Shown here piece after piece: positions 12,647-28,638 of a stretch of 64,000 bases of DNA. A program made the position numbers and the translations under genes. A model generated the notes under the pieces. The model saw only the letters and a list, made by a program, of their open reading frames with translations, was not told where the DNA came from and made no database searches. This DNA is from an uncultured delta proteobacterium. GTDB taxonomy: Bacteria > Myxococcota > Myxococcia > Myxococcales > Anaeromyxobacteraceae. Where the stretch lies: NCBI GenBank assembly GCA_963828255.1, contig CAWHDZ010000003.1, positions 128,001 to 192,000 on the forward strand. Direction: 5' to 3'. The stretch's first letter is position 1. Each line of letters begins with the position of its first letter.

Positions 12647-13270
12647 CTACTTCGTCGCCTTCTCCAGCGTGATGGCCACCGCCTCGACGTAGGTCGCGAG
12701 GAGCTTGTCGCCGACCTTGAGCTTATCGAGTTTCACCTTGGATCCGGCCTTCACCTTGTAGACGTTGCCTCCCGGACCCTCGATCGTCACCAGGCGCTTG
12801 GCGGAGTTGATCGCGGTCACGGTCACCGTGCCGCGCATCCCCTGGCCGGCCGTGCCCGCCGAGATCTGGCCCCGGTCGTCGCGGGTGGCGACCTCCACGT
12901 CCGTGGGAGGGACGAACTCCGTCCCGGCCGGCTGGAACTCCAGCGCGAGTCCCTGCTCGAAGTCGATCACGACGGTGTCGCCGACGGCGAACTTGTCGAG
13001 ATTCTTCACCGCAGGTCCGACCTTCATCGTCTCCTTCCCGCCCATGTCGTGCTGCAGGGTCACGATGCGGGTGGGGACGTCGATCGCGTGGACGGTGGCG
13101 GTGATCTTCAACGTCCGCGTGGCCACTGCCTTCCCGGGCGTGCCGCTCTGCTTCATCTCGACCGGACGCCGGGTGGAGAGGGGCGGGGCCGCGGCCGGCT
13201 CAGGCGCCTGGGCGTGGGAGGAGACGGCGATCAGGATCGATGCGAGCGGGACCACGAGCTTCGAGTTCAC
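12647..13270 (-). CDS. Exported protein with two OB-fold-like repeats
   Basis: GTGA overlap with ydiK; signal peptide; repeated ATVHAID..RIVTL..KVG..GD and VTVTAIN..RLVTI..KVGD. Confidence 0.7.
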   Translation of the reverse strand: MNSKLVVPLASILIAVSSHAQAPEPAAAPPLSTRRPVEMKQSGTPGKAVATRTLKITATVHAIDVPTRIVTLQHDMGGKETMKVGPAVKNLDKFAVGDTVVIDFEQGLALEFQPAGTEFVPPTDVEVATRDDRGQISAGTAGQGMRGTVTVTAINSAKRLVTIEGPGGNVYKVKAGSKVKLDKLKVGDKLLATYVEAVAITLEKATK

Positions 13271-14373
13271 TTGGAGTCTCCTTCGGGGATCGGGGGTGAC
13301 GGGGGAGCGTCCTCCGGAGCGCGGTCGAGGTCGCCGACCCAGGCCACGAGCAGCGTCCAGGTGACGGCCAGCAGCACCGGACCGACGAAGAGCCCGACCA
13401 CGCCGAAGGCCAGCACCCCGCCGATGACGCCGGACATGATGAGGAGCAGCGGGAGGTCGGCGCCCTTCCTGATGAGCACCGGGCGGACGAGGTTGTCGAG
13501 CGTCACGGCCAGGAGGGAGAAGATGAGCAGCACCGTTCCGCGCCAGGTCGCACCCGTCGAGTAGAGCCAGATGGTCGCCGGCGCAACCACCAGGAGCGGG
13601 CCGACCTGCGCGATGCAGAGGACGAGGACCACGGCGGTGAGCAGACCCGCGTGCGGCACCCCGGAGAGCGCGAGCCCCAGCCCGGCGAACAGGGTCTGGG
13701 CCAGGGCGGTGACCACGATCCCCAGCGCCACGGCCCGCACCGCCTTGGCAGCCAGCCGTCCCGAGCTCTCGCCCCGCTCCCCGGCCAGGCGGCGGAGGAA
13801 GCGGAGCACGCCCCGCCCCGCGGTCTCCCCGGAGGCGTAGAGGATGCCCGCCACGATCACCGTGAGCACGAGCTGGACGAGCGTGGTGCCGATTCCCCCC
13901 GCCCTGGCCGCGATCCAGGTCGCGGCCCCCTTCATGTAGGGCTGGAAACGGGCGAGGAGCGACTCGGGGCTCCCGGCCATTCCCTGCCACGCTGCAGCGA
14001 CACGCTCGCCCACCAGCGGAATGCCGCCGAGCCAGGCCGGGGGTGGGGGAAGCCCGTCGGTGGCGAGGGAGTACGCGAGCTTGCCGACCCTCTCGGAGTT
14101 GTCGGCGATGGTGGAGATGCCGAGCCAGGTCGGGACCACGAGCACGGCGAGCAGGGCGAGGACCATCACGGCCACCGCCGGCCCCCGGCGCCCCCCGAGC
14201 CTCGCCTGGACCGCGACCAGGACGGGCCAGGTGGCGACGACGATCATGGTGGCCCAGACCACGGCCGCGGCGAAGGGCAGCATCACCCAGATGCAGGCGC
14301 CGATCATTGCTGCCAGAGCCAGGACACCCAGGGTGATGCGGGGGAGGTCGTACGAAGGCGGCGAGACGTTCAC
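13267..14373 (-). CDS. ydiK: AI-2E family transporter YdiK
   Basis: WATMIVVATWP, AVRAVALGIVVTALAQ, DNLVRPVLIRKGADLPLLLI..GGVLAFG. Confidence 0.85.
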   Translation of the reverse strand: MNVSPPSYDLPRITLGVLALAAMIGACIWVMLPFAAAVVWATMIVVATWPVLVAVQARLGGRRGPAVAVMVLALLAVLVVPTWLGISTIADNSERVGKLAYSLATDGLPPPPAWLGGIPLVGERVAAAWQGMAGSPESLLARFQPYMKGAATWIAARAGGIGTTLVQLVLTVIVAGILYASGETAGRGVLRFLRRLAGERGESSGRLAAKAVRAVALGIVVTALAQTLFAGLGLALSGVPHAGLLTAVVLVLCIAQVGPLLVVAPATIWLYSTGATWRGTVLLIFSLLAVTLDNLVRPVLIRKGADLPLLLIMSGVIGGVLAFGVVGLFVGPVLLAVTWTLLVAWVGDLDRAPEDAPPSPPIPEGDSK

Positions 14374-14394: not shown

Positions 14395-16521
14395 TCAGCG
14401 CGACCTGGACCAGCCCACCCAGGCCTCGTCGTGGACGCGGACATCGGGGAAGCCGAGGTAGCGGAGGATGAAGAAGGCATCGGTGGCGGCGAGGCCGGTG
14501 TCACAGGTGGTGATGACGGTCCTGTCCGGGGTGATCCCGCGTGTCCGGAGCATCCACAGGAGCTCCCTGGGCGGCTTCAGCTTGCCATTGTCCATGATGA
14601 GCGCGCCGAGCGGTAGGCTGATCGAGCCCGGGATGGCGCCGGCCCGGGAGGCCTTCTCGTGCTTCGTCTCGCCCAGGACCCGGTGGATGGCGCGGGCGTC
14701 CACGACCACCACCTTCGGCCTGCCGAGGAGAGCGGCCAGCTCGGCCCCGCTCACCACGAAGTCCGGCCGGGCGGCCCCCCGGAAGATGCGCGGCTTCGGG
14801 GCGAGGGGAGCCGTGCCCGCATGGAAGCCTGCCGCGTGCCAGCCCTCGATGCCGCCGTCGAGGTAGGAGACGTTCGAGGCGCCGGCCCACTGCAGCACCG
14901 CGAGGAGAGCGGTCGCCGTCAGCCCGGACTGGTCGTAGACGACCACGTGATCCTCGGCGGCGATTCCGGCGCGGCCGAGGATGGCCGCCACCTTCTCGTG
15001 CTCCACCAGCGTGAAGGGCCGCTCCGCGTCGGCGCCGGTGCGCAGGCCGCTCGTCAGGGGGTCGAGCCAGACGGCCCCCTCGACGTGCCCCTTGTCGTAG
15101 GCGTCCTTGCCGCGGGCGTCCACGACCACGACCCCCTTCTTCCCCAGGTTCTCGTGCAGCCACCGGGCGTCCACCACCATCCCGGTCCGGACCTTGCTCG
15201 TGTCCACCGAGAGCGGCTGGGTCCGCTCGAGGCGCTTCGGCACCTTGCCGTCGGGGACGACCACCTTCCGGTTGGCCTGCTTCTCGAAGTCCTGGACGTC
15301 GGCGCCCGCCAGGAAGAGCGCCCGGTTCCCGTGGCAGTTGTTGCAGCTTGCCGACTGCCAGGTGCGCCGCTGGACGTTGTGCGGCGAGGCCCGCTTCCAG
15401 GTGGGGACGTTCCCGAAGCCGGTGAAGAGGTCCTTGCCGTAGAAGTCGAACATCTCGGGGTAGGCCGGGACGTGGCGGACCAGCTCGTAGCGGACCCCGG
15501 ATCCGCCTGCGTTCGTCCCCGCTGCGAGCCCGATCTTGAAGGACTCCACCTCGAGCCGGTTCTGGAAGTAGGCCGTCCCCTCGGCATCCTTGCCCACGTG
15601 GCAGCCCCAGCAGTTGACGTAGGTCTGGGAGTGGCACACCTGGCACTGCACCTTCCCCAGGTGGATGGCGTGATCCCGGACCGACCCGTACTGCAGGTCC
15701 TCGTGACAGCCGGTGCAGCGCGCGGCCTCGGCGAGCTGGTACCGGCCAGGGAGCCCCGGGGGGGCCGCCGCGTGCATCTCCCTGGCCCCGTGGCAGGAGG
15801 TGCAGTCCATCGCCCTGGCCGCGTGGACGTCCCCCAGGCCGCGCTCGCCGAAGAACTCGCTGCCCACGCGGCTCCCGTGGCAGGCGGTGCACTGCTCGAT
15901 GGGGTCCGGACGCTTCCGGAAGGTGTGCCCCTCGACGAATCCCCTCCCGGCGAACCCGGGGCGGCTCACGTGACAGCCGCCGCAACTGGTGTGGCAGGCC
16001 GAGCAGTGGTTCCGGCGCGCCTCGTCCGCGTGCCGCCACTTCCCCTGGCTCGCCCGCTTCCCGAGCACCCGGGGGAAGGTGGAGAGCGTGGCGTGCAGCG
16101 AGTCCTTTGCCGTGGCCACGATCTCGCCGTGGCAGTCGCCGCAGGCCTTCCCGGGGCTGGTCACGGAAGGGACGGGGACGAAGCCTGCGTGTGCGGCGCC
16201 CTTGTCGAGGCTGGCCGGATCGCCGCCGTGGCAGCCCTCGCAGGCCAGCGCACCGTGGGTGGTGGCCAGAAACTCCTTCGAGACCAGGACCTTCGCCTGT
16301 GGCTCCAACGGAGCCACCGAGCCGCCTCAACCGGCGCCCGACTGCAGCGCCGATTTCCTTGCGGTGGACACGGCGAGGTTCCGGGCGAGCATGGCCTCGT
16401 CCAGGTGGCAGGTGACGCATCCGGACGGCTCGGCGGCCCGCGAATCCATCGGGACGCCGGCGGCGAGCAGGCCGGAAAACGCGCTCGCCACTGCCGCGAC
16501 GGCCCTGAATCCCTGCGACAT
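14395..16521 (-). CDS. Predicted selenocysteine-containing 11-haem cytochrome c fused to tandem rhodanese domains (708 aa, U65)
   Basis: ATG at 16521 with AGGAGG; in-frame TGA at 16327-16329 (SGAG-U-GGSVAP) followed by a SECIS-like hairpin; 11 CxxCH; rhodanese motifs with CDTGLAA. Confidence 0.8.
16299..16317 (-). promoter_or_regulatory. Bacterial SECIS-like stem-loop
   Basis: GTGGCTCC-GTT-GGAGCCAC: perfect 8-bp stem; loop starts with GU, 17 nt after the UGA. Confidence 0.75.
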
Positions 16522-16666
16522 GTCCCCCTCCTGGTGATGATCCCGACGACAGGAAGACACGCTGCGTCAATCCGAGTCTTGACCCCCGACAGGCCGACCC
16601 ATGTGGGATAGGATGCGCCCCAGCATCGGAATCCACTTCCCTGGGTGCTCCTGGAACTGATCGGCA

Positions 16667-17893
16667 GTGGCGCGCGACCCCACCATCCAGAGGATGCTCC
16701 TCCGGCGGGTGGGGGTCGCCACGCTGCTGGTCTCGGCCGTCGCGGCCGCGCTGGTCGGCGCCCGCGAGGCGGGGCGCACCGAGCAGCTCGTGCTGGAGCG
16801 CGCGGTGCAGGGCGCGGCGATGATGAACCTCGCCCTGATGCCCCAGCTCGACGCGGGGCTCTCCGACGGACCCGCCGTCCAGCGCATCCTCGATCGGCTG
16901 TCCGCGTCGCGGGCCGGAGCGGCCAGCGGGCGCTTCGTCACCGTGGCCATCCGGGACCCCTCCGGACTGGAGGTGGCGCGCATCACGACGGCGGACCGGC
17001 CGGCGGGAGGGCAGGGGCTCCTCCCGGTCGAGGTCCCGCTCCACGACTCCACCGGTCGCGTGGCCGGGAAGGTGGCCGCATGGTTCGAGGTCTCGGAGGA
17101 GGCGCGCGCCGAGGCGCGGCGCCGCCTGGCGGGAGCCATCGCGCTGGCGGTGGCGATCGTCCTCGCCACCGCGGCCATCCTCCACCCCATCGTGGCCCGC
17201 CTGCTGCGCAGGCTCGAGACCCTCTCCCTGAGCCTGCTCGACGCCAACCTCGAGACCCTCGGCGTCCTGGGAAGCGCCATCGCCAAGCGCGACAGCGACA
17301 CCGACGCCCACAACTTCCGGGTCACGGCCTACGCCGCCCGCCTCGGCGAGGCGGCGGGCCTGCGCGGGGACGGCATGCGGGCGCTCCTCAAGGGCGCCTT
17401 CCTCCACGACGTGGGAAAGCTGGGCATCCGCGACGCGGTCCTGCTCAAGCCGGGGAAGCTCGACGCCGCCGAGTTCGGCGAGATGAAGCGGCACGTCGCC
17501 CACGGGCTCGACATCATCGACCGCTCGGGCTGGCTGCGCGACGCCAGGCCGGTGGTGGGGCACCACCACGAGAAGTGGGACGGATCGGGCTACGGGGGCG
17601 GCCTCGGCGGCGACGCGATCCCCCTCCCGGCCCGCGTCTTCGCGGTGGCCGACGTCTTCGACGCGCTCACCTCGCGACGCCCCTACAAGGAGCCGATGTC
17701 GGTCGAGGAGGCCATGGCCATCGTCGAGAAGGGGCGCGGCAGCCACTTCGACCCGCAGGTTCTCGACCTCTTCGCCGGGATGGCGAAGGAGCTTTATCTG
17801 AGGTTCGCCTGCGACGAGGGGGAGGCGGCGCACGCCGAGGTGAAGGCGCTCCAGGAACGGCACTTCCGCGGGGAACTGGGCGCGCTCCTCTGA
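16667..17893 (+). CDS. Membrane-anchored HD-GYP domain protein
   Basis: Two TM segments; RDSDTDAH, LHDVGK, HHEKWDGSGYGGGL, ADVFDALTSRRPYK. Confidence 0.9.
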   Translation: MARDPTIQRMLLRRVGVATLLVSAVAAALVGAREAGRTEQLVLERAVQGAAMMNLALMPQLDAGLSDGPAVQRILDRLSASRAGAASGRFVTVAIRDPSGLEVARITTADRPAGGQGLLPVEVPLHDSTGRVAGKVAAWFEVSEEARAEARRRLAGAIALAVAIVLATAAILHPIVARLLRRLETLSLSLLDANLETLGVLGSAIAKRDSDTDAHNFRVTAYAARLGEAAGLRGDGMRALLKGAFLHDVGKLGIRDAVLLKPGKLDAAEFGEMKRHVAHGLDIIDRSGWLRDARPVVGHHHEKWDGSGYGGGLGGDAIPLPARVFAVADVFDALTSRRPYKEPMSVEEAMAIVEKGRGSHFDPQVLDLFAGMAKELYLRFACDEGEAAHAEVKALQERHFRGELGALL

Positions 17894-20490: not shown

Positions 20491-23400
20491 TTGGCGGCGA
20501 TCCTCGACACCCTTCCGTTCCGGGACGAGCTGCTCAGCATCGAGCGGCTGGAGGAGCGCGCCCGCGCGCTCGCCGCCCGGTTCACGGTGGATCCCCACCG
20601 GCGCAAGGCCCGGAGCGTCTTCCCTCGCTTCGACGACAACGCCCAGGTCCTGCGGCAGGCCTACCGTGCCCTCGCCGCCGACGTGCACCAGGGGAAGTTC
20701 ATCACCCCGGCGGGAGAGTGGCTCCTCGACAACTACCACCTGGTGGACTCGGAGATCCGCGTGGTCCGGCAGAACCTCCCGCGCGGCTACTACCGGGAGC
20801 TGCCCAAGCTCGCGGCCCGCGACCTGGCGGGCAACGCCCGGGTCTACGCCCTCGCCGTCGAGCTGATCCGCCACAGCGACAGCCGCCTCGATCGGCAGCA
20901 GCTGGCCCGTTTCCTCGACGGCTTCCAGACCGTCGCCCCGCTGACCATCGGCGAGCTCTGGGCCTGGCCCAGCATGCTGAAGCTCGCACTCATCGAGAAC
21001 CTGAGGCGGCTCGCCGACCAGACGATGGACGCCCGTGCGGCGCGGCGGGCCGCCGACGGCTACGTGGCCCGGATCGACGCGGCGGGGAAGGGGGCCGTGC
21101 CACCGCTTCCCCGCTCGCTCCACGCCGCACACGTGGTGCAGCTGATGCACCGCGTCCGGGAGTATGGTCCGCGCCTCTCTGCCCTCCGCCGCGAGCTGGA
21201 TGCGCACGTGGCCCAGGGGGGCCACACGGCCGAGGAGGCCATCCGCAGCGAGCACCAGCGCGAGGCCGCCACCCAGGTGTCGGTGGCGAACGCCATCACC
21301 AGCCTCCGGCTCTGCGCCGAGATCGACTGGCCGCAGTTCGTGGAATCGGTGAGCCTGGTGGAGCGCGTCCTGCAGCGGGACCCCGCCGGGGTGCATGGCC
21401 GGATGGAGTTCCTGAGCCGGGATCGCTATCGCCAGGCCGTCGAGGAGCTCGCCGAGCCCTCCGGGGAGGCCCAGGTGCGCGTGGCCCTTCGCGCCGTGGA
21501 GAGCGCGCGCGAGGTGGCCGAGGTGGAGGGGCCCGGCGCACGCGCCGCCCACGTCGGCCACCACCTCATCGGGAAGGGGCGGCGGGGACTCGAGTCCGAC
21601 GTGGCCTGGCGCCCGGGCTTCGCAAAGGGACTTCGCCGCCTCGCCTTCTCGCACGCCCCGTTCCTCTACCTGGCGGCGATCACCATCGCCACCGCCGGGC
21701 TGGTCGCCGCAGGGGTCGCCTACGCCCGAATGGAGCACGGCACCCTCCGGGGCCAGGTCGCCGTGGCGCTCCTGCTGCTCCTGCCGGCGAGCGAGCTCGC
21801 CATCGCCTTCGTCCAGCGCCTGGCCGCCCACCTGGCCCCTCCGCGGCGCCTTCCACGCCTCGACTTCGAGGCAGGGATTCCCGACGAGGCGCGGACCCTG
21901 GTGGTCGTGCCCACGCTCCTCTCCAGCGTGGCGGGGGTCGACGAGCTGCTCGGGCACGTCGAGGTACTGGCCCTCGGAAACCTCGACCCGCGCATCCACT
22001 TCGCCATCCTGGGAGACTTCACCGACGCCGAGGCGCGGGAGATGCCCGGCGACGAGTCCATCCTCGACACTGCGCGCCTGGGCGTCGAGGCGCTGAACGC
22101 CCGGCTCTCGGAGGGGCGAGGGGACCGGTTCTTCCTGCTCCACCGCACGCGGCAGTGGAACCCGGGTGAGGGTGTGTGGATGGGGTGGGAGCGGAAGCGC
22201 GGAAAGCTCGAGGAGCTGAACCGGCTCCTGCGCGGCGCCACCGACACGAGCTTCGCGGTGCAGGTCGGCGCGACGGCCATCCTCCCGGCGGTGCGCTACT
22301 GCATCACGCTCGACACCGACACCCGTCTGCCGCGGGACGCCGCACGGAAGCTCATCGGGATCATCGCCCACCCGCTCAACAGGCCCCGCTTCGACGCGGC
22401 CAGCGGCAGGGTGACCGAGGGGTACGGGATCCTGCAACCCAGGGTCAGCGTGGCCACGTCGAGCGCGGCGGGCTCACGCTTCGCCCGGATCTTCGCTGGC
22501 CAGACCACGGTGGATCCCTACACGACCGCGGTCTCGGACACCTACCAGGACCTCTTCGGCGAGGGGACCTTCACCGGCAAGGGGCTGTACGACGTGGACG
22601 CCTTCGCCGCCGCGCTGACCGGCCGGGTTCCCGACAACGCGCTCCTCTCGCACGATCTCTTCGAGGGGCTGCACGCGCGAGCGGCCCTGGTCACCGACGT
22701 GGAGGTGGTGGACGACTACCCCTCGAGCGTCCTCACCCATGCGCGCCGGCAGCACCGGTGGGCCCGCGGCGACTGGCAGATCCTGGCCTGGCTCTTCCCC
22801 TTCGTTCCCACCCGCAGGGGGCTGCAACGCAACCACCTCCCCATCCTCTCGCGGTGGAAGATCCTCGACAACCTGCGGCGCAGCCTGCTCGCGCCGGCGA
22901 CCGTGGCCCTCCTGCTCGCCGCGTGGACGATCCTGCCTGGGAGCCCTGCGGTCTGGACGGTGCTGGTCGTCCTGGCCACCGCCTTCCCGCTCCTGCCGCT
23001 GGCGTTCGAGGCCATCGCCGGTCCAACGCCGCAGCAGCCGTGGCGGGCCTTCGTTCGCGGGCTCCGGGAGGACGCCGGGGGCGGGCTGGCGCGCGTCCTG
23101 CTCCAGCTCGCCTTCCTCGCCAACCAGGCCCACGAGATGCTGCACGCCATCCAGATCACCCTGGTCCGGCTCGTGTTCACGCGGCGGAGGCTGCTCGAGT
23201 GGGAGACGGCGGCGGCGAGCGCGGCCCGCGGGGCGGCGGGCCCGGGAGGCGCCGGAGCGCGCCCGTTCTGGGTCGAGATGGCGGCCAGCCCGGTCATCGC
23301 CGGCGCCGGACTCCTCGGGGTCATGGCCTTCCGACCGTCCGCGCTCTGGGCCGCGGCGCCGGTCCTCGGGCTCTGGGCCGTCGCGCCGTTCATCGCCCAT

Positions 23401-26400
23401 GGCCTGAGCCGTGTCGCTCCCCGGCGCGCCCTGGGCGCCGAGGACCGCGCCTTCCTCCTCGCCGTTGCGCGCAAGACCTGGGGATGGTTCGACGCCTTCA
23501 TGGGCGTGGAGGACCACGGCCTGCCTCCCGACAACTTCCAGGAGGTCCCCGATCCGAAGGTTGCGCACCGGACCTCGCCGACCAACATCGGCATGGGCCT
23601 GCTCTCCATCCTGTCCGCCCACGACCTCGGCTTCATCGAGACGGCGGAGCTCGTCGAGCGGGTCGACGCGGCGCTCACCACGGTGGAGGGGCTGGAGCGG
23701 CTCGAGGGGCATCTCTACAACTGGTACGACACGGTGAGCCTGGCGCCGCTCGAGCCCCGCTACGTCTCCACGGTCGACAGCGGCAACCTGGCGGGAGCGC
23801 TCGTCGCGCTCGCCGAGGGGCTCCGTGAGCTGCCTCCGTCGGATGGGCTGGCGGCGCTCGCGACGCGTTCCTCCGCCCTCGCCTACGGGATGGACTTCCG
23901 GTTCCTCTACGACCTGCGGCGCAGGCTCCTGTCGATCGGGTACCGCGCCGCGGACGCCGACGGGCCGGGGGAGCTCGACGCCTCCCACTACGACCTGCTC
24001 GCCTCGGAGGCCCGGCTGGCCAGCTTCTTCGCCATCGCCAAGGGCGACCTGCCGGAGCTGCACTGGTTCCGGCTCGGTCGCACGGTCACCGGCGTCCACG
24101 GCGTGCCCACGCTGCTCTCCTGGAGCGGGACGATGTTCGAGTACCTGATGCCGCTCCTGCTCATGCGGAGCTACCCGGGCACGCTGCTGGAGGAGAGCTG
24201 CCGGGCGGCGGTCCGGCGCCAGAGGGACTACGCCGTGGAGCGGGGAGTCCCGTGGGGGATCTCCGAGTCGGCCTACGACCTCGTCGACCGCCACGAGAAC
24301 TACCAGTACAAGGCCTTCGGCGTGCCCGGGCTGGGACTCAAGCGCGGACTGGGGGACGAGCTGGTGGTCGCCCCCTATGCGGCCGCGCTGGCCACCCTCG
24401 TCGACCCGGAGGCCGCCGTGCGGAACCTGCGCCGGCTCACGGCCGAGGGGCTCGAGGGCGCCCACGGCTACTTCGACGCCGTGGACTTCACGCGGCGTCG
24501 CAGCGACGACCCCGGGGCTCCGGTTCCCGAGAAGGGCCCGGTCGAGGGAGCGATCGTCCGCACCTACCTGGCCCACCACCAGGGGATGACCCTGACGGCG
24601 ATCGCCAATGCACTGCAGGGAAACCGGATGGTGGAGCGCTTCCACGCCGACCCGCGGGTCCGGGCCACCGAGCTGCTCCTCCAGGAGAAGGCTCCCCGGC
24701 ACGCCCCGTTCGCCCGGCCCCGTCCGGACGAGGCCACGACCCGGGCGCCGCCGGTGCCCCCCGTGGAGGTCCGCCGCTTCCGCTCGGCCCACACTCCCTA
24801 CCCGCACGCCCAGTTCCTCTCCAACGGAAACTACACCGCGGTGGTGACCAACGCGGGCGGAGGCTCGAGCTTCTGCCGGGGACGGGCCGTGACCCGATCG
24901 CGCCTGGACGCCACCTGCGACCCGGGAAGCCAGTTCCTCTACCTGCGTGACGTGCGCAGCGGCCGGGTGTGGTCGGCCACCCAGCACCCCACCCCGGGAG
25001 AGGCCGAGGACTACCTCGTGACCTTTGCGGTGGAGCGGGCCACCTTCCACAGGCGAGAGGACGAGATCGGAACACGGCTCGACATCGCCGTTTCCCCGGA
25101 GGACGACGTGGAGGTCCGGCGCCTGGTGGTGACGAACCACAGCGACCGCGTCCGCGAGATCGAGGTGACGAGCTACGCCGAGATCGTGCTGGGACCGGCA
25201 GCCGACGACCTGGCCCATCCCTCCTTCGGAAAGCTCTTCGTGGAGTCGGAGTACGTCGCCGGGAGCGCCGCGCTCCTCTGCCATCGCCGGCCGCGCGCGC
25301 CCGACGACGCACCCGCCTGGGGGCTGCACGTCATCAGCCAGGAGGGCAGGACGCAGGGGCCCGTGGAGTGGGAGACCGATCGGGCCCGGTTCCTCGGACG
25401 GGGACGCAGTCCCCGGGACCCGCAGGCGCTCGACGGACGGTCGTTGACCGGCACCACCGGCGTCCTGCTCGACCCGATCGTCAGCCTGCGGCAGCGCATC
25501 CGGCTCGCCCCGGGCGGCGTGGCCAGGATGTCCTTCGCCACCGGGATGACCGGGAGCCGGGAGACGGCGCTCGCGCTGGCCCAGCGCTACAGGGATCCCA
25601 GCGCCACGGCCCGGACCTTCGCGCTCGCCTCGGCGCACGCGCGGAGCACGCTCCGCCACCTCGGGATCTCGGCCGACGAGGCCCTGGTGTTCGAGCGCCT
25701 GGCCTCGCGCGTGCTGCGGAGCGATGCCTCGCTGCGCGCGCCCTCCGAGCTCCTGGCCCGCACCACCCTCGGGCAGGCCGGGCTCTGGCCGCACGGCATC
25801 TCCGGCGACCTGCCCATCCTGCTCGCACGGGTGGTGACGGCGGACGGGCTCTCGCTGGTGCGGCAGGTCCTGCAGGCACAGGAGTACTGGCGGCTGAAGG
25901 GGCTCCAGGCCGACGTGGTGATCCTGAACGAGCACCCCACGAGCTACCTCGACGAGGCCCACGGCGCGCTGACCGCGCTGCTCGACGACGGCCCGTGGAG
26001 GGCCTGGAAGGACCGTCCGGGCGGGGTGTACCTCCTCCGGCGCGACCGCATGCCCGACGCCGAGCACCTGCTGCTGACCACTGTGGCGCGGGCCATCGTC
26101 AGCGACGACCGGGGCGAGCTGGCACGGCAGCTCGACCGGCCCACCCCGCCCTGGACCGAGCCGCCCGCCCAGGTCATCGCCCCGGCGCCGGCCGCGCAGC
26201 TCGCGCCCGCGCCGGTTCCGCCGCTCGCCCTGGCCAACGGGCTCGGCGGGTTCGCCGATCAGGGGCGCGCGTACGTCGTGGTCCTGGAGGGCGCGGAGGA
26301 GACCCCGTCACCGTGGGTGAACGTCATCGCCAATCCGGGCTTCGGGACCATCGTCTCGGCCTCGGGATCGGCCTTCACCTGGTCCATGAACAGCCGCGAG

Positions 26401-28638
26401 AACCGGCTCACCCCCTTCGCCAACGACCCGGTGACCGACCCGACCGGCGAGGCCATCTTCCTCCGGGACGAGGACACGGGCACGGCCTGGACGCCCACGC
26501 CGGGGCCGCTTCCGCGCACCGGGACCAGCGGGCGCCACGTGGTCCGCCACGCCGCCGGGGTCACGCGGTTCGCCCGGGCGGCGAACGGCATCCGGAGCGA
26601 GCTGGCCGTCTTCGTGCATGACGCCGACCCGGTGAAGTTCTCGGTCCTCACCGTGACGAACGAGGGCCCGGCTCCGCGGCGGCTCGGTGTCTTCGGCTAC
26701 GCCGAGTGGGTCCTGGGGCCGCCGCAGGAGGGCCAGCACCTGCACGTGGTCACGCGACTCGACGAGGAGACCGGGACCATCCTGGCAACGAACTCATGGA
26801 ACAACGAGCTCGCCGGGCGCGTGGCGTTCGCCCACGCGAGCGAGCCGCTCCTCTCCTCCACCGGGGACCGGACCACGTTCCTGGGGCGGAACGGCTCGAT
26901 CGAGGCCCCGGCGGCTCTCCTCCACGCCTCGCTCCACGGCCGGTTCGGGGCCGGGCTGGATCCCTGCGCGGGCCTCCACGTCGCCGTCTCGCTCGATCCG
27001 GGACAGACCCGGCAGGTCGTCTTCCTGCTCGGCCAGGGCAGGGACGGGGCGCACGCGCAGGATCTCGTTGCCCGCCACGGTTCCGTCCCCGCGGCGGAAG
27101 CCGCGCTGGAACGGGTGACGCGCGGCTGGGACGAGACGCTGGGCGCGGTGCAGGTGAGCACCCCCGACGACTCCTTCGACCTCCTCATGAACTGCTGGCT
27201 CCTGCAGCAGGACCTGGGCTGCAGGCTGTGGGCGCGGTCCGGCTACCACCAGCCGGGCGGGGCCTTCGGCTTCCGCGACCAGCTCCAGGACGTGATGGCG
27301 CTCGTGCTGGCCCGGCCCGACCTGGTGCGGGAGCACCTCCTGCGGGCCGCGTCCCGGCAGTTCCAGGAGGGCGACGTGCAGCACTGGTGGCACGAGCCCA
27401 GCGGCCGGGGCACGCGCACGCGCTGCTCGGACGACATGCTCTGGTTGCCCTTCGCGGTCGCGCACTACGTGCGAACGACGGGCGATGCCGCGGTGCTGGA
27501 CGAGAGCGTCCCGTTCCTCTCCGCGCCCGCGCTCCGGCCCGACGCCCAGGAGACCTACGCCCGGCCGGAGGTCGCGGCCGAGCGGGGGACGCTCTTCGAG
27601 CACTGCGCCCGCGCCCTCGATCGCGGGATCACCACCGGCGCCCACGGACTTCCCCTCATGGGAAGCGGGGACTGGAACGACGGGATGAACCGGGTCGGCC
27701 GGGCGGGCAGGGGAGAGAGCGTCTGGCTCGGCTTCTTCCTCCACGCGGTGCTGAACGACTTCGCGCCCCTGTGCGCGTCCCGGGGGGACGCCGCGCGGGC
27801 CGATCGCTATCGGGGCGAGGCCGAACGGCTGGTGGCGGTCCTGGCGCGGGCGTGGGACGGCGAGTGGTACCTGCGCGGCCACTACGACGACGGGGCGCCG
27901 CTGGGGTCGTCGCAGAACGACGAGTGCCGGATCGACTCGATCGCCCAGTCCTGGGCGGTCCTCTCCGGGGCCGCCCCGCCGCGCCTCGCCGACCGATCCA
28001 TGGACGCGGTCCGCACCCACCTCGTCCGCCGGGGCCCGGGCGTCATCCTGCTGCTCGCGCCCCCGTTCGACCACACGGCGCAGGATCCCGGCTACATCCG
28101 GGGCTACCCGCCCGGCGTCCGGGAGAACGGCGGGCAGTACACCCACGCGGCGGCATGGACCGTGATGGCCCTCGCGAAGCTCGGGAGCGGAGACGAGGCG
28201 GCGGAGCTCTTCCACATGCTGAACCCCATCAACCACACGCGCTCGCGCATCGACGTCGAGAAGTATCGAGGGGAGCCCTACGTCCTCGCCGGCGACGTGT
28301 GCGCCCATCCCGACCACGCCGGCCGCGCGGGGTGGACCTGGTACACCGGGTCGGCGGGCTGGATGTACCGGGCCGGGCTGGAGAGCATCCTGGGCCTCCG
28401 GCGACACGGAGCGACCTTCGAGGTGGACCCGTGCGTGCCCGCCTCATGGCCGGAGTACTCCATCACCTGGCGCGTCGGCCGGACCACCTACGAGATCGCC
28501 GTCGCGAACCCGGACCGGGCCTGCCGGGGAGTCGCCCGGGCGGAGCTGGACGGCGCACCGGTCGATCACCGCGCCGTTCCCATCGTCGACGACGGCCGGG
28601 TCCACCAGGTGCGGCTGGTGCTCGGGCCCACCGGCTAG
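20491..28638 (+). CDS. ndvB: Cyclic beta-1,2-glucan synthase (GT84 plus GH94-like domains)
   Basis: 2715 aa; [72 protein letters not shown]. Confidence 0.95.

Follow-up and report, generated by a model that had tools for sequence, protein, structure and literature searches.

The window (the whole stretch of DNA analysed, 64,000 nucleotides long) carries on its (-) strand a gene at 14395..16521 that, as judged from its readthrough translation and from homologues, encodes a 708-aa protein in which the TGA of codon 65 is read as selenocysteine (Sec). All the features described next lie on that strand. The ATG at 16521 is preceded at a distance of 5 nt by a Shine-Dalgarno-like AGGAGG (16527..16532) and opens a predicted Sec-pathway signal peptide (residues 1–29, 16435..16521), recognised by eye and similar to the leaders of homologues. 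The first haem motif, CVTCH (residues 35–39, 16405..16419), lies 5′ of the TGA and is absent from the standard annotation. The TGA itself (16327..16329), assigned by translation and homologue comparison, falls within SGAG-U-GG and is followed by a SECIS-like hairpin (16299..16317; folding and comparison) with an 8-bp stem, GTGGCTCC/GGAGCCAC, and a GTT loop at 16309-16307. Next come a multihaem core with haems 2–11 and an OTR-like fold according to the predicted model and profile alignment (residues about 86–430, 15232..16266) and two rhodanese domains identified by Pfam and alignment. Domain 1 (residues 452–564, 14830..15168) is of the inactive type, with Asp530 at the catalytic position, and domain 2 (residues about 590–706, 14404..14754) carries the catalytic Cys673 (14503-14505) in a CDTG loop.

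An earlier, sequence-only reading had joined a small ORF and a 640-aa ORF that share one frame and are split by the TGA, and the 708-aa readthrough product bears this out; the ribosome-binding site and the signal peptide noted then are present at the start of the gene. No AGGAGG-like site stands upstream of GTG 16317, at the base of the hairpin, and the downstream half of the ORF has neither leader nor ribosome-binding site. The product contains eleven CxxCH motifs (starting at residues 35, 94, 127, 173, 180, 211, 240, 269, 293, 304, and 393), and its single Cys outside the haem motifs is C673, in TTCDTGLAA. Pfam returned two rhodanese stretches and generic multihaem matches; the motif count, Pfam, Asp530 and C673 thus agree with the eleven haems and the Asp-type and Cys-type rhodanese domains of the original description. 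The tandem rhodanese part is nearest to TST/MST structures and shares with TST/MST and YnjE the layout of tandem rhodanese sulfurtransferases, with Asp in the first domain and Cys in the second, but differs from TST/MST in its CDTG/CNTG loop. The SseA/MST equivalog NF008557 was rejected as an assignment (100.7 bits against a cut-off of 250).

Standard annotation splits the gene, as had been anticipated. All 120 protein database matches listed are 490–654 aa long, their query coverage never exceeds 90%, and among 150 distant representatives 40 start just past the Sec column, which indicates that annotation truncates the family. The databases searched hold it only in truncated form, with the leader, the first haem and the Sec missing. 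The full-length gene was found in 5 of 40 relatives, with one TGA in each.

Conservation of the site was followed in 101 loci from three homologue sets (6, then 15 of 20 after leaving out 1 duplicate and 4 weak partial matches, then 80 of 80). The codon is TGA in 98 of them and TGC in one, and the site is uncovered in two; TAA, TAG or any other codon was found in none of the 99 aligned loci, and TAA or TAG in none of the 29 wider-family loci inspected. After de-duplication, all 94 distinct TGA loci read G-U-G-G. Three loci look broken: L064 has a TAA 10 codons past the TGA, and L065 and L090 end early. A Gly or Trp at this position, which the sequence-only reading had taken as the mark of a simple nonsense mutation, is thus missing from close homologues but does occur farther out. 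While 17 of 40 full-length representatives have Cys at the Sec column, as does the homologue L067 (V-E-G-C-G-G), the other 23 carry a different residue there (among them W, Y, A, L, M, G, and S, in a region where the alignment is loose). One of these, P0146, is a rhodanese-fused protein of 715 aa with Tyr at the Sec position (G-E-G-Y) and a CNTK rhodanese loop. The fold would therefore not need Sec or Cys, which speaks against Sec being essential. However, Sec forms are under-represented among full-length records, and Trp, Gly, Leu and Ser codons are one change away from TGA, so the non-Cys residues may be losses.

Bacterial SECIS elements are hairpins located just 3′ of the UGA with a loop starting in GU, and the perfect hairpin noticed at this locus, whose GUU loop begins 17 nt after the UGA, has this form. 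Its geometry is found at 4 of the 70,152 TGA triplets of the genome, and the gene's sole TTG among 54 Leu codons sits in its loop; the folding z-score of the 100-nt region is modest (-2.1, with 6 of 200 shuffles folding equally well). The loop is GTT in all 82 distinct downstream sequences. Synonymous sites in the stem and loop are locked (Pro+6 is CCG in 88/88, Leu+7 is TTG in 92/94, and GTG is used for 91 of 93 Val codons), whereas the Gly codons flanking them on either side vary freely. In the stem alignment, 96% of the cells are paired and 18 cells carry a double change, and none of 500 shuffles scored as high; kinship among the loci inflates this shuffle test, of which the codon locking is independent. 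The double changes turn C-G into U-A, and U-A into G-C or C-G, and some alter the amino acid. Registers of the stem slid out of place are 37–50% paired. The same register is kept in most of the loci without a rhodanese fusion, and other hairpin shapes occur in deeper clades. The conserved TGA with a covarying hairpin, proposed as a check in the sequence-only reading, was found.

The genome also carries the machinery that Sec insertion calls for, with selA, selB, tRNA-Sec (selC) and selD all above their cut-offs, a check that the sequence-only reading had proposed; the host selD is itself interrupted by an in-frame TGA. Of the carrier genomes, 48 of 50 have selB, and selA was found in all 5 checked. 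On contig C30 of the host genome (93412-93504), ARAGORN reported a further tRNA of TCA anticodon, which is absent from the Rfam tRNA-Sec list and is possibly a false call or a contamination (6.6%).

The TGA might still be a true stop, separating two proteins, or it might be due to a sequencing error or mark a pseudogene. In public annotations a protein always ends or begins at this codon, and although near-identical DNA was found in freshwater-sediment assemblies, none of the sequencing-run assemblies checked holds a contig that bridges the TGA with at least 31 bases on each side; a single RNA run gave short divergent pieces only. Yet TAA and TAG never replace it, the downstream part lacks a leader and a ribosome-binding site, and the Cys homologues, the covarying hairpin and the co-occurrence of selB all favour Sec. 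We regard a true stop as scarcely credible; from this comparative sequence evidence, TGA65 almost certainly encodes selenocysteine.

An AlphaFold2 model of residues 31–430, with Cys in place of Sec, reached a pLDDT of 93.7 and a pTM of 0.90. The full-length model (pTM 0.84) has a low-confidence N-terminus, as only 6 of 116 rows cover it. The Sec had been placed on a flexible Gly loop. The flanking glycines are there (G-U-G-G), but the loop is predicted to be fairly ordered, with a pLDDT of about 84, which does not support flexibility.

Among solved structures, the Shewanella OTR 1sp3 ranks first by sequence profile (E 2e-13), by Foldseek (prob 0.98, TM 0.40, E 2.8e-3) and by VIA-align (Z 8.9, rmsd 4.6, 265 aligned residues; next match 4.6). 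In ESM Atlas, the cluster names recovered were all generic ones for cytochrome c. Profile alignment by HHalign with 14 fetched OTRs gave 98.8% (E 6e-16) and placed haems 3–9 and 11 collinear with OTR haems 1–8, leaving haems 1, 2, and 10 as extras. As far as profiles and the predicted model can tell, the haem domain is distantly related to OTR and has three haems more, and the haem part is not the mere wire that it had been taken for, since both the fold and HHalign point to an OTR-type enzyme core. Formal OTR membership was rejected (TIGR04315, 11.7 bits against a cut-off of 375).

OTR (TIGR04315, PDB 1sp3) and the window protein have in common the collinear eight-haem core, a similar fold and the existence of Sec forms. 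OTR differs in lacking haems 1, 2, and 10 and any rhodanese coupling, in its GK lysine, and in its Sec, which is at NNF-U. In OTR, haem 2 is the catalytic haem, and a Lys ligates the haem iron. According to HHalign, neither the GK lysine nor the NNF-C/U before haem 2 is kept in the window protein; Arg156, close to the position of the GK lysine, is conserved in 132 of 144 sequences. The OTR NNF-U site aligns near residue 165 and not with U65, which would mean that this protein and the Sec-OTRs recruited Sec at different places on the OTR scaffold. A TGA is present at NNF-U before haem 2 in 5 of the 14 fetched OTR loci (L209, L210, L215, L220, and L222), where the sequence 3′ of the TGA is strongly conserved, and many further TGA rows for OTR were seen across 61 genomes.

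Of 401 Desulfobacterota genomes sampled, 45 matched the haem-domain profile, at 48 places, 47 of which have one TGA; the remaining place starts 3′ of the site. Inspection of 29 loci showed the TGA at the same column, mostly as G-E-G-U-G-G. These Desulfobacterota members are nearly all stand-alone 11-haem proteins (open frames of about 420–500 aa), and the family also occurs in Nitrospirota and Anaeromyxobacteraceae records. Downstream of the non-fused genes, a rhodanese domain lies on the same strand at 77–423 nt in 32 of the 35 evaluable places (38 distinct places minus 2 at contig ends and 1 fused copy), as found with an HMM built partly from those same partners; at 3 of the 35 there is none. 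Pfam confirmed the rhodanese in all 6 partners tested. The partners carry leaders, and CDTG, CNTG, CKSG, and CYTG are examples of their Cys loops; of the 74 full-length fused loci, 72 show DTG or NTG as the loop that follows the rhodanese Cys. A quick midpoint-rooted tree of 75 rows groups the 13 fused Sec proteins on a single branch (support 97) nested in a branch dominated by stand-alone Sec forms (support 99), and Sec, Cys and neither-type members are scattered across the deeper branches. The single chain of haems, Sec and rhodanese proposed at the outset is therefore true of the window gene and its clade, but in most of the family the 11-haem protein stands alone and a secreted rhodanese is encoded by its own gene next door.

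This appears to be a widespread and apparently undescribed selenoprotein family, in which the fusion is confined to one clade, and it would add a large family present in about 11% of the sampled Desulfobacterota genomes. No NCBIfam model (June 2026) reached its cut-off for the window protein or for 15 representatives, so that the ExtKL/MccSep, OTR, GSU2204-type and DG families were rejected as assignments; the hypothetical selenoprotein DG (NF049953, GUxG motif) gave no HMM match at the window locus. Table 1 of a 2026 review (PMC13188914) lists 119 prokaryotic selenoprotein families, including Sec-OTR as GenBank-annotated, and the window family is absent among its three cytochrome-type entries (ExtKL, the GSU2204 type and OTR) and its five rhodanese forms. 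A rhodanese-paired Sec 11-haem family was not found described in the full-text literature searched, which did not take in the family table of BSepDB, a compilation of previously reported families (PMC13326102).

The closest parallel is MccSep/ExtKL of Geobacter sulfurreducens (GSU2937-2936, NF040886), which is likewise a periplasmic multihaem c selenoprotein split at the UGA by annotation, with a SECIS-like hairpin, Cys-type homologues, a range covering Desulfobacterota and Nitrospirota, and a rhodanese-like protein in its cluster (ExtH, by its NCBIfam name). MccSep is a 5-haem Sec enzyme shown to reduce polysulfide at a His/Cys haem (PMC13510729). The difference from ExtKL asserted earlier holds: MccSep has 5 CxxCH haems against 11 here, its Sec325 comes from a C-terminal Ig-like domain and not from an N-terminal arm as does Sec65, and its His/Cys239 haem has no counterpart in a haem domain devoid of spare Cys. 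Identity with NF040886 was rejected, as no HMM match was obtained at E<=0.1 (the best of the genome, 19 bits, lies elsewhere). MccSep was not among the fold matches listed for the protein model, from libraries that may not contain it, and as a raw count it occurs in 1 of 50 carrier genomes.

Two further likenesses concern single elements. SoxY has a GGCGG carrier arm, and SoxA and TsdA have His/Cys haems, so that a Gly-flanked chalcogen residue near c-type haems (G-U-G-G here, GGGCGG in P0148 and P0210) recalls these systems, as a resemblance of motif only; the Sec arm differs from that of SoxY in being internal, part of the cytochrome. The His/Cys haem of TsdA is also mentioned in PMC13510729. 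Secreted sulfur carriers of Psr operons, such as the secreted rhodanese encoded in that of Desulfurivibrio dismutans (PMC12142623), are also encoded near a reductase but have a molybdoenzyme as partner, whereas the partner here is a haem/Sec protein.

Outside the CxxCH motifs, nine His are at least 94% conserved across the family (89, 111, 143, 199, 233, 250, 284, 287, and 381), and His350 is 80% conserved. Ten conserved spare His for eleven haems would leave one haem, likely haem 4 (the equivalent of OTR haem 2), with a site that is probably open or occupied by something other than His, and Sec65 would reach this haem. Since there are ten His for eleven haems, the haem domain has no spare Cys, the Sec loop is ordered, and His, Met or Tyr takes the Sec column in a few relatives, Sec65 could even be the distal ligand of a c-type haem. 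The protein would then be a natural selenolate-ligated cytochrome c (His/Sec), and multihaem sulfur enzymes would have recruited Sec independently for a third time; the Sec would swing off to strip sulfur from the rhodanese. We hold this only tentatively and find it rather doubtful: the fused clade conserves H172 at 90% or more, Trp, Gly or Ala is found at the column in other relatives, and the Sec of MccSep is not a haem ligand. A natural Sec-ligated P450 has already been reported (PMC11703216). If His/Sec ligation were true, it would mean a polysulfide reductase of this kind in hundreds of anaerobes without MccSep.

The UGA65, its hairpin, the Sec machinery, the Cys homologues and the rhodanese coupling are well established at the level of sequence comparison; export, c-type haem attachment and the OTR-like fold are predicted. 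The gene very likely encodes an 11-haem selenoprotein that is exported and combines an OTR-like core with a rhodanese in one chain, and we infer that it probably acts as a periplasmic reductase of rhodanese-bound persulfide or polysulfide by means of its selenocysteine. Cys673 would take sulfane sulfur from polysulfide or thiosulfate to form a persulfide, whose S-S bond would be attacked by the selenolate of Sec65, carried on a Gly-flanked arm folded back on the core. The Se-S intermediate would then be reduced at the haem without a second His, and sulfide would be freed. The quinol pool would supply the electrons by way of partners of the NapC/NirT-like, cytochrome b/c or c3 type, which are encoded beside some homologues. 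By analogy, the rhodanese-paired Sec cytochrome probably works like MccSep, although it belongs to neither the MccSep nor the OTR family, and the pairing gives a testable candidate for periplasmic sulfur or polysulfide respiration in anaerobes, most of them without MccSep and many without dsrA.

Other functions can be argued from the same material. The OTR-like core and a tandem rhodanese nearest to TST/MST structures would also suit an enzyme that handles a sulfur or selenium oxyanion (tetrathionate, thiosulfate, selenite) in the manner of OTR, with the rhodanese merely accepting the sulfane or selenane product. This seems unlikely, given that the GK lysine and the NNF-C/U site of OTR are missing and that the active-site loop of thiosulfate sulfurtransferases has basic residues, whereas CDTG or CNTG has none. 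MccSep reduces selenite too but is inactive with thiosulfate or tetrathionate (PMC13510729).

The flow could also be oxidative, sulfide or polysulfide being oxidised at the Sec, the sulfur passing onto the rhodanese and the electrons through the haems to quinone or to the porin-cytochrome conduits of iron or nitrate respiration. The loci L198 and L199, which lie in MtrB/PioB porin and multihaem clusters, and the lack of dsrA enrichment speak for it; however, a porin context was seen in 2 of 20 wide loci only, and the known precedent for a Sec-haem enzyme is a reductase, which makes this direction rather improbable. It would be more surprising still if the protein were non-respiratory, serving in periplasmic persulfide or disulfide repair or detoxification, or were an electron-transfer cytochrome whose Sec tunes one haem. 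The many full-length relatives without Cys or Sec, the missing operon conservation in the fused clade and the patchy spread (5 of 40 relatives) would fit such a role, but the rhodanese pairing is near-constant, quinone-linked neighbours recur, and eleven haems plus a Sec would be costly for housekeeping. Reduction of rhodanese-bound sulfur thus remains our preferred reading.

A link to sulfate reduction was rejected, as dsrA is not enriched in carriers (18 of 45 against a background of 204 of 401); it is found in none of 6 genomes of the host's own family. Across 42 fused loci, no conserved operon was found, only partial neighbours, among them a NapC/NirT-like gene in 8 loci and a cytochrome c3 in 6. 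The window neighbours, an HD-domain gene, an AI-2E transporter, VIT and an Na/Ca exchanger, offer no sulfur context, and a promoter and terminator scan gave nothing useful. The AI-2E (YdiK) transporter gene (13267-14373, (-)) begins 21 nt past the stop, and a similar gene is present in 5 of 42 homologous loci. Divergently, at 16667-17893 (+), the HD-domain gene, which has an HD-GYP-like motif, encodes an N-terminal membrane sensor region. Farther off, 20491-28638 (+) encodes a 2715-aa glycosyltransferase/GH94 protein, which we take to be cyclic beta-1,2-glucan synthase-like.

Several homologous loci have a richer setting. In L200, the Sec 11-haem gene is accompanied by a rhodanese, more multihaem genes, a second rhodanese and a 9-haem/cytochrome b561 fusion, and L201 and L204 have similar clusters; this arrangement looks like a complete quinone-linked module. 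The members in L198 and L199, within clusters of MtrB/PioB porin and 8–20-haem cytochromes, are probable lipoprotein-type Sec proteins, and their rhodanese partners have Cys in both domains. Finally, haem 3 reads CxxCK in L058, L059, L065, L092, and L134, with a His 7 residues later (e.g., C-G-Q-C-K...H), which may mean that CxxCK itself binds the haem or that the motif is extended; in the group's four long loci, a NapC/NirT-like cytochrome is also encoded upstream.
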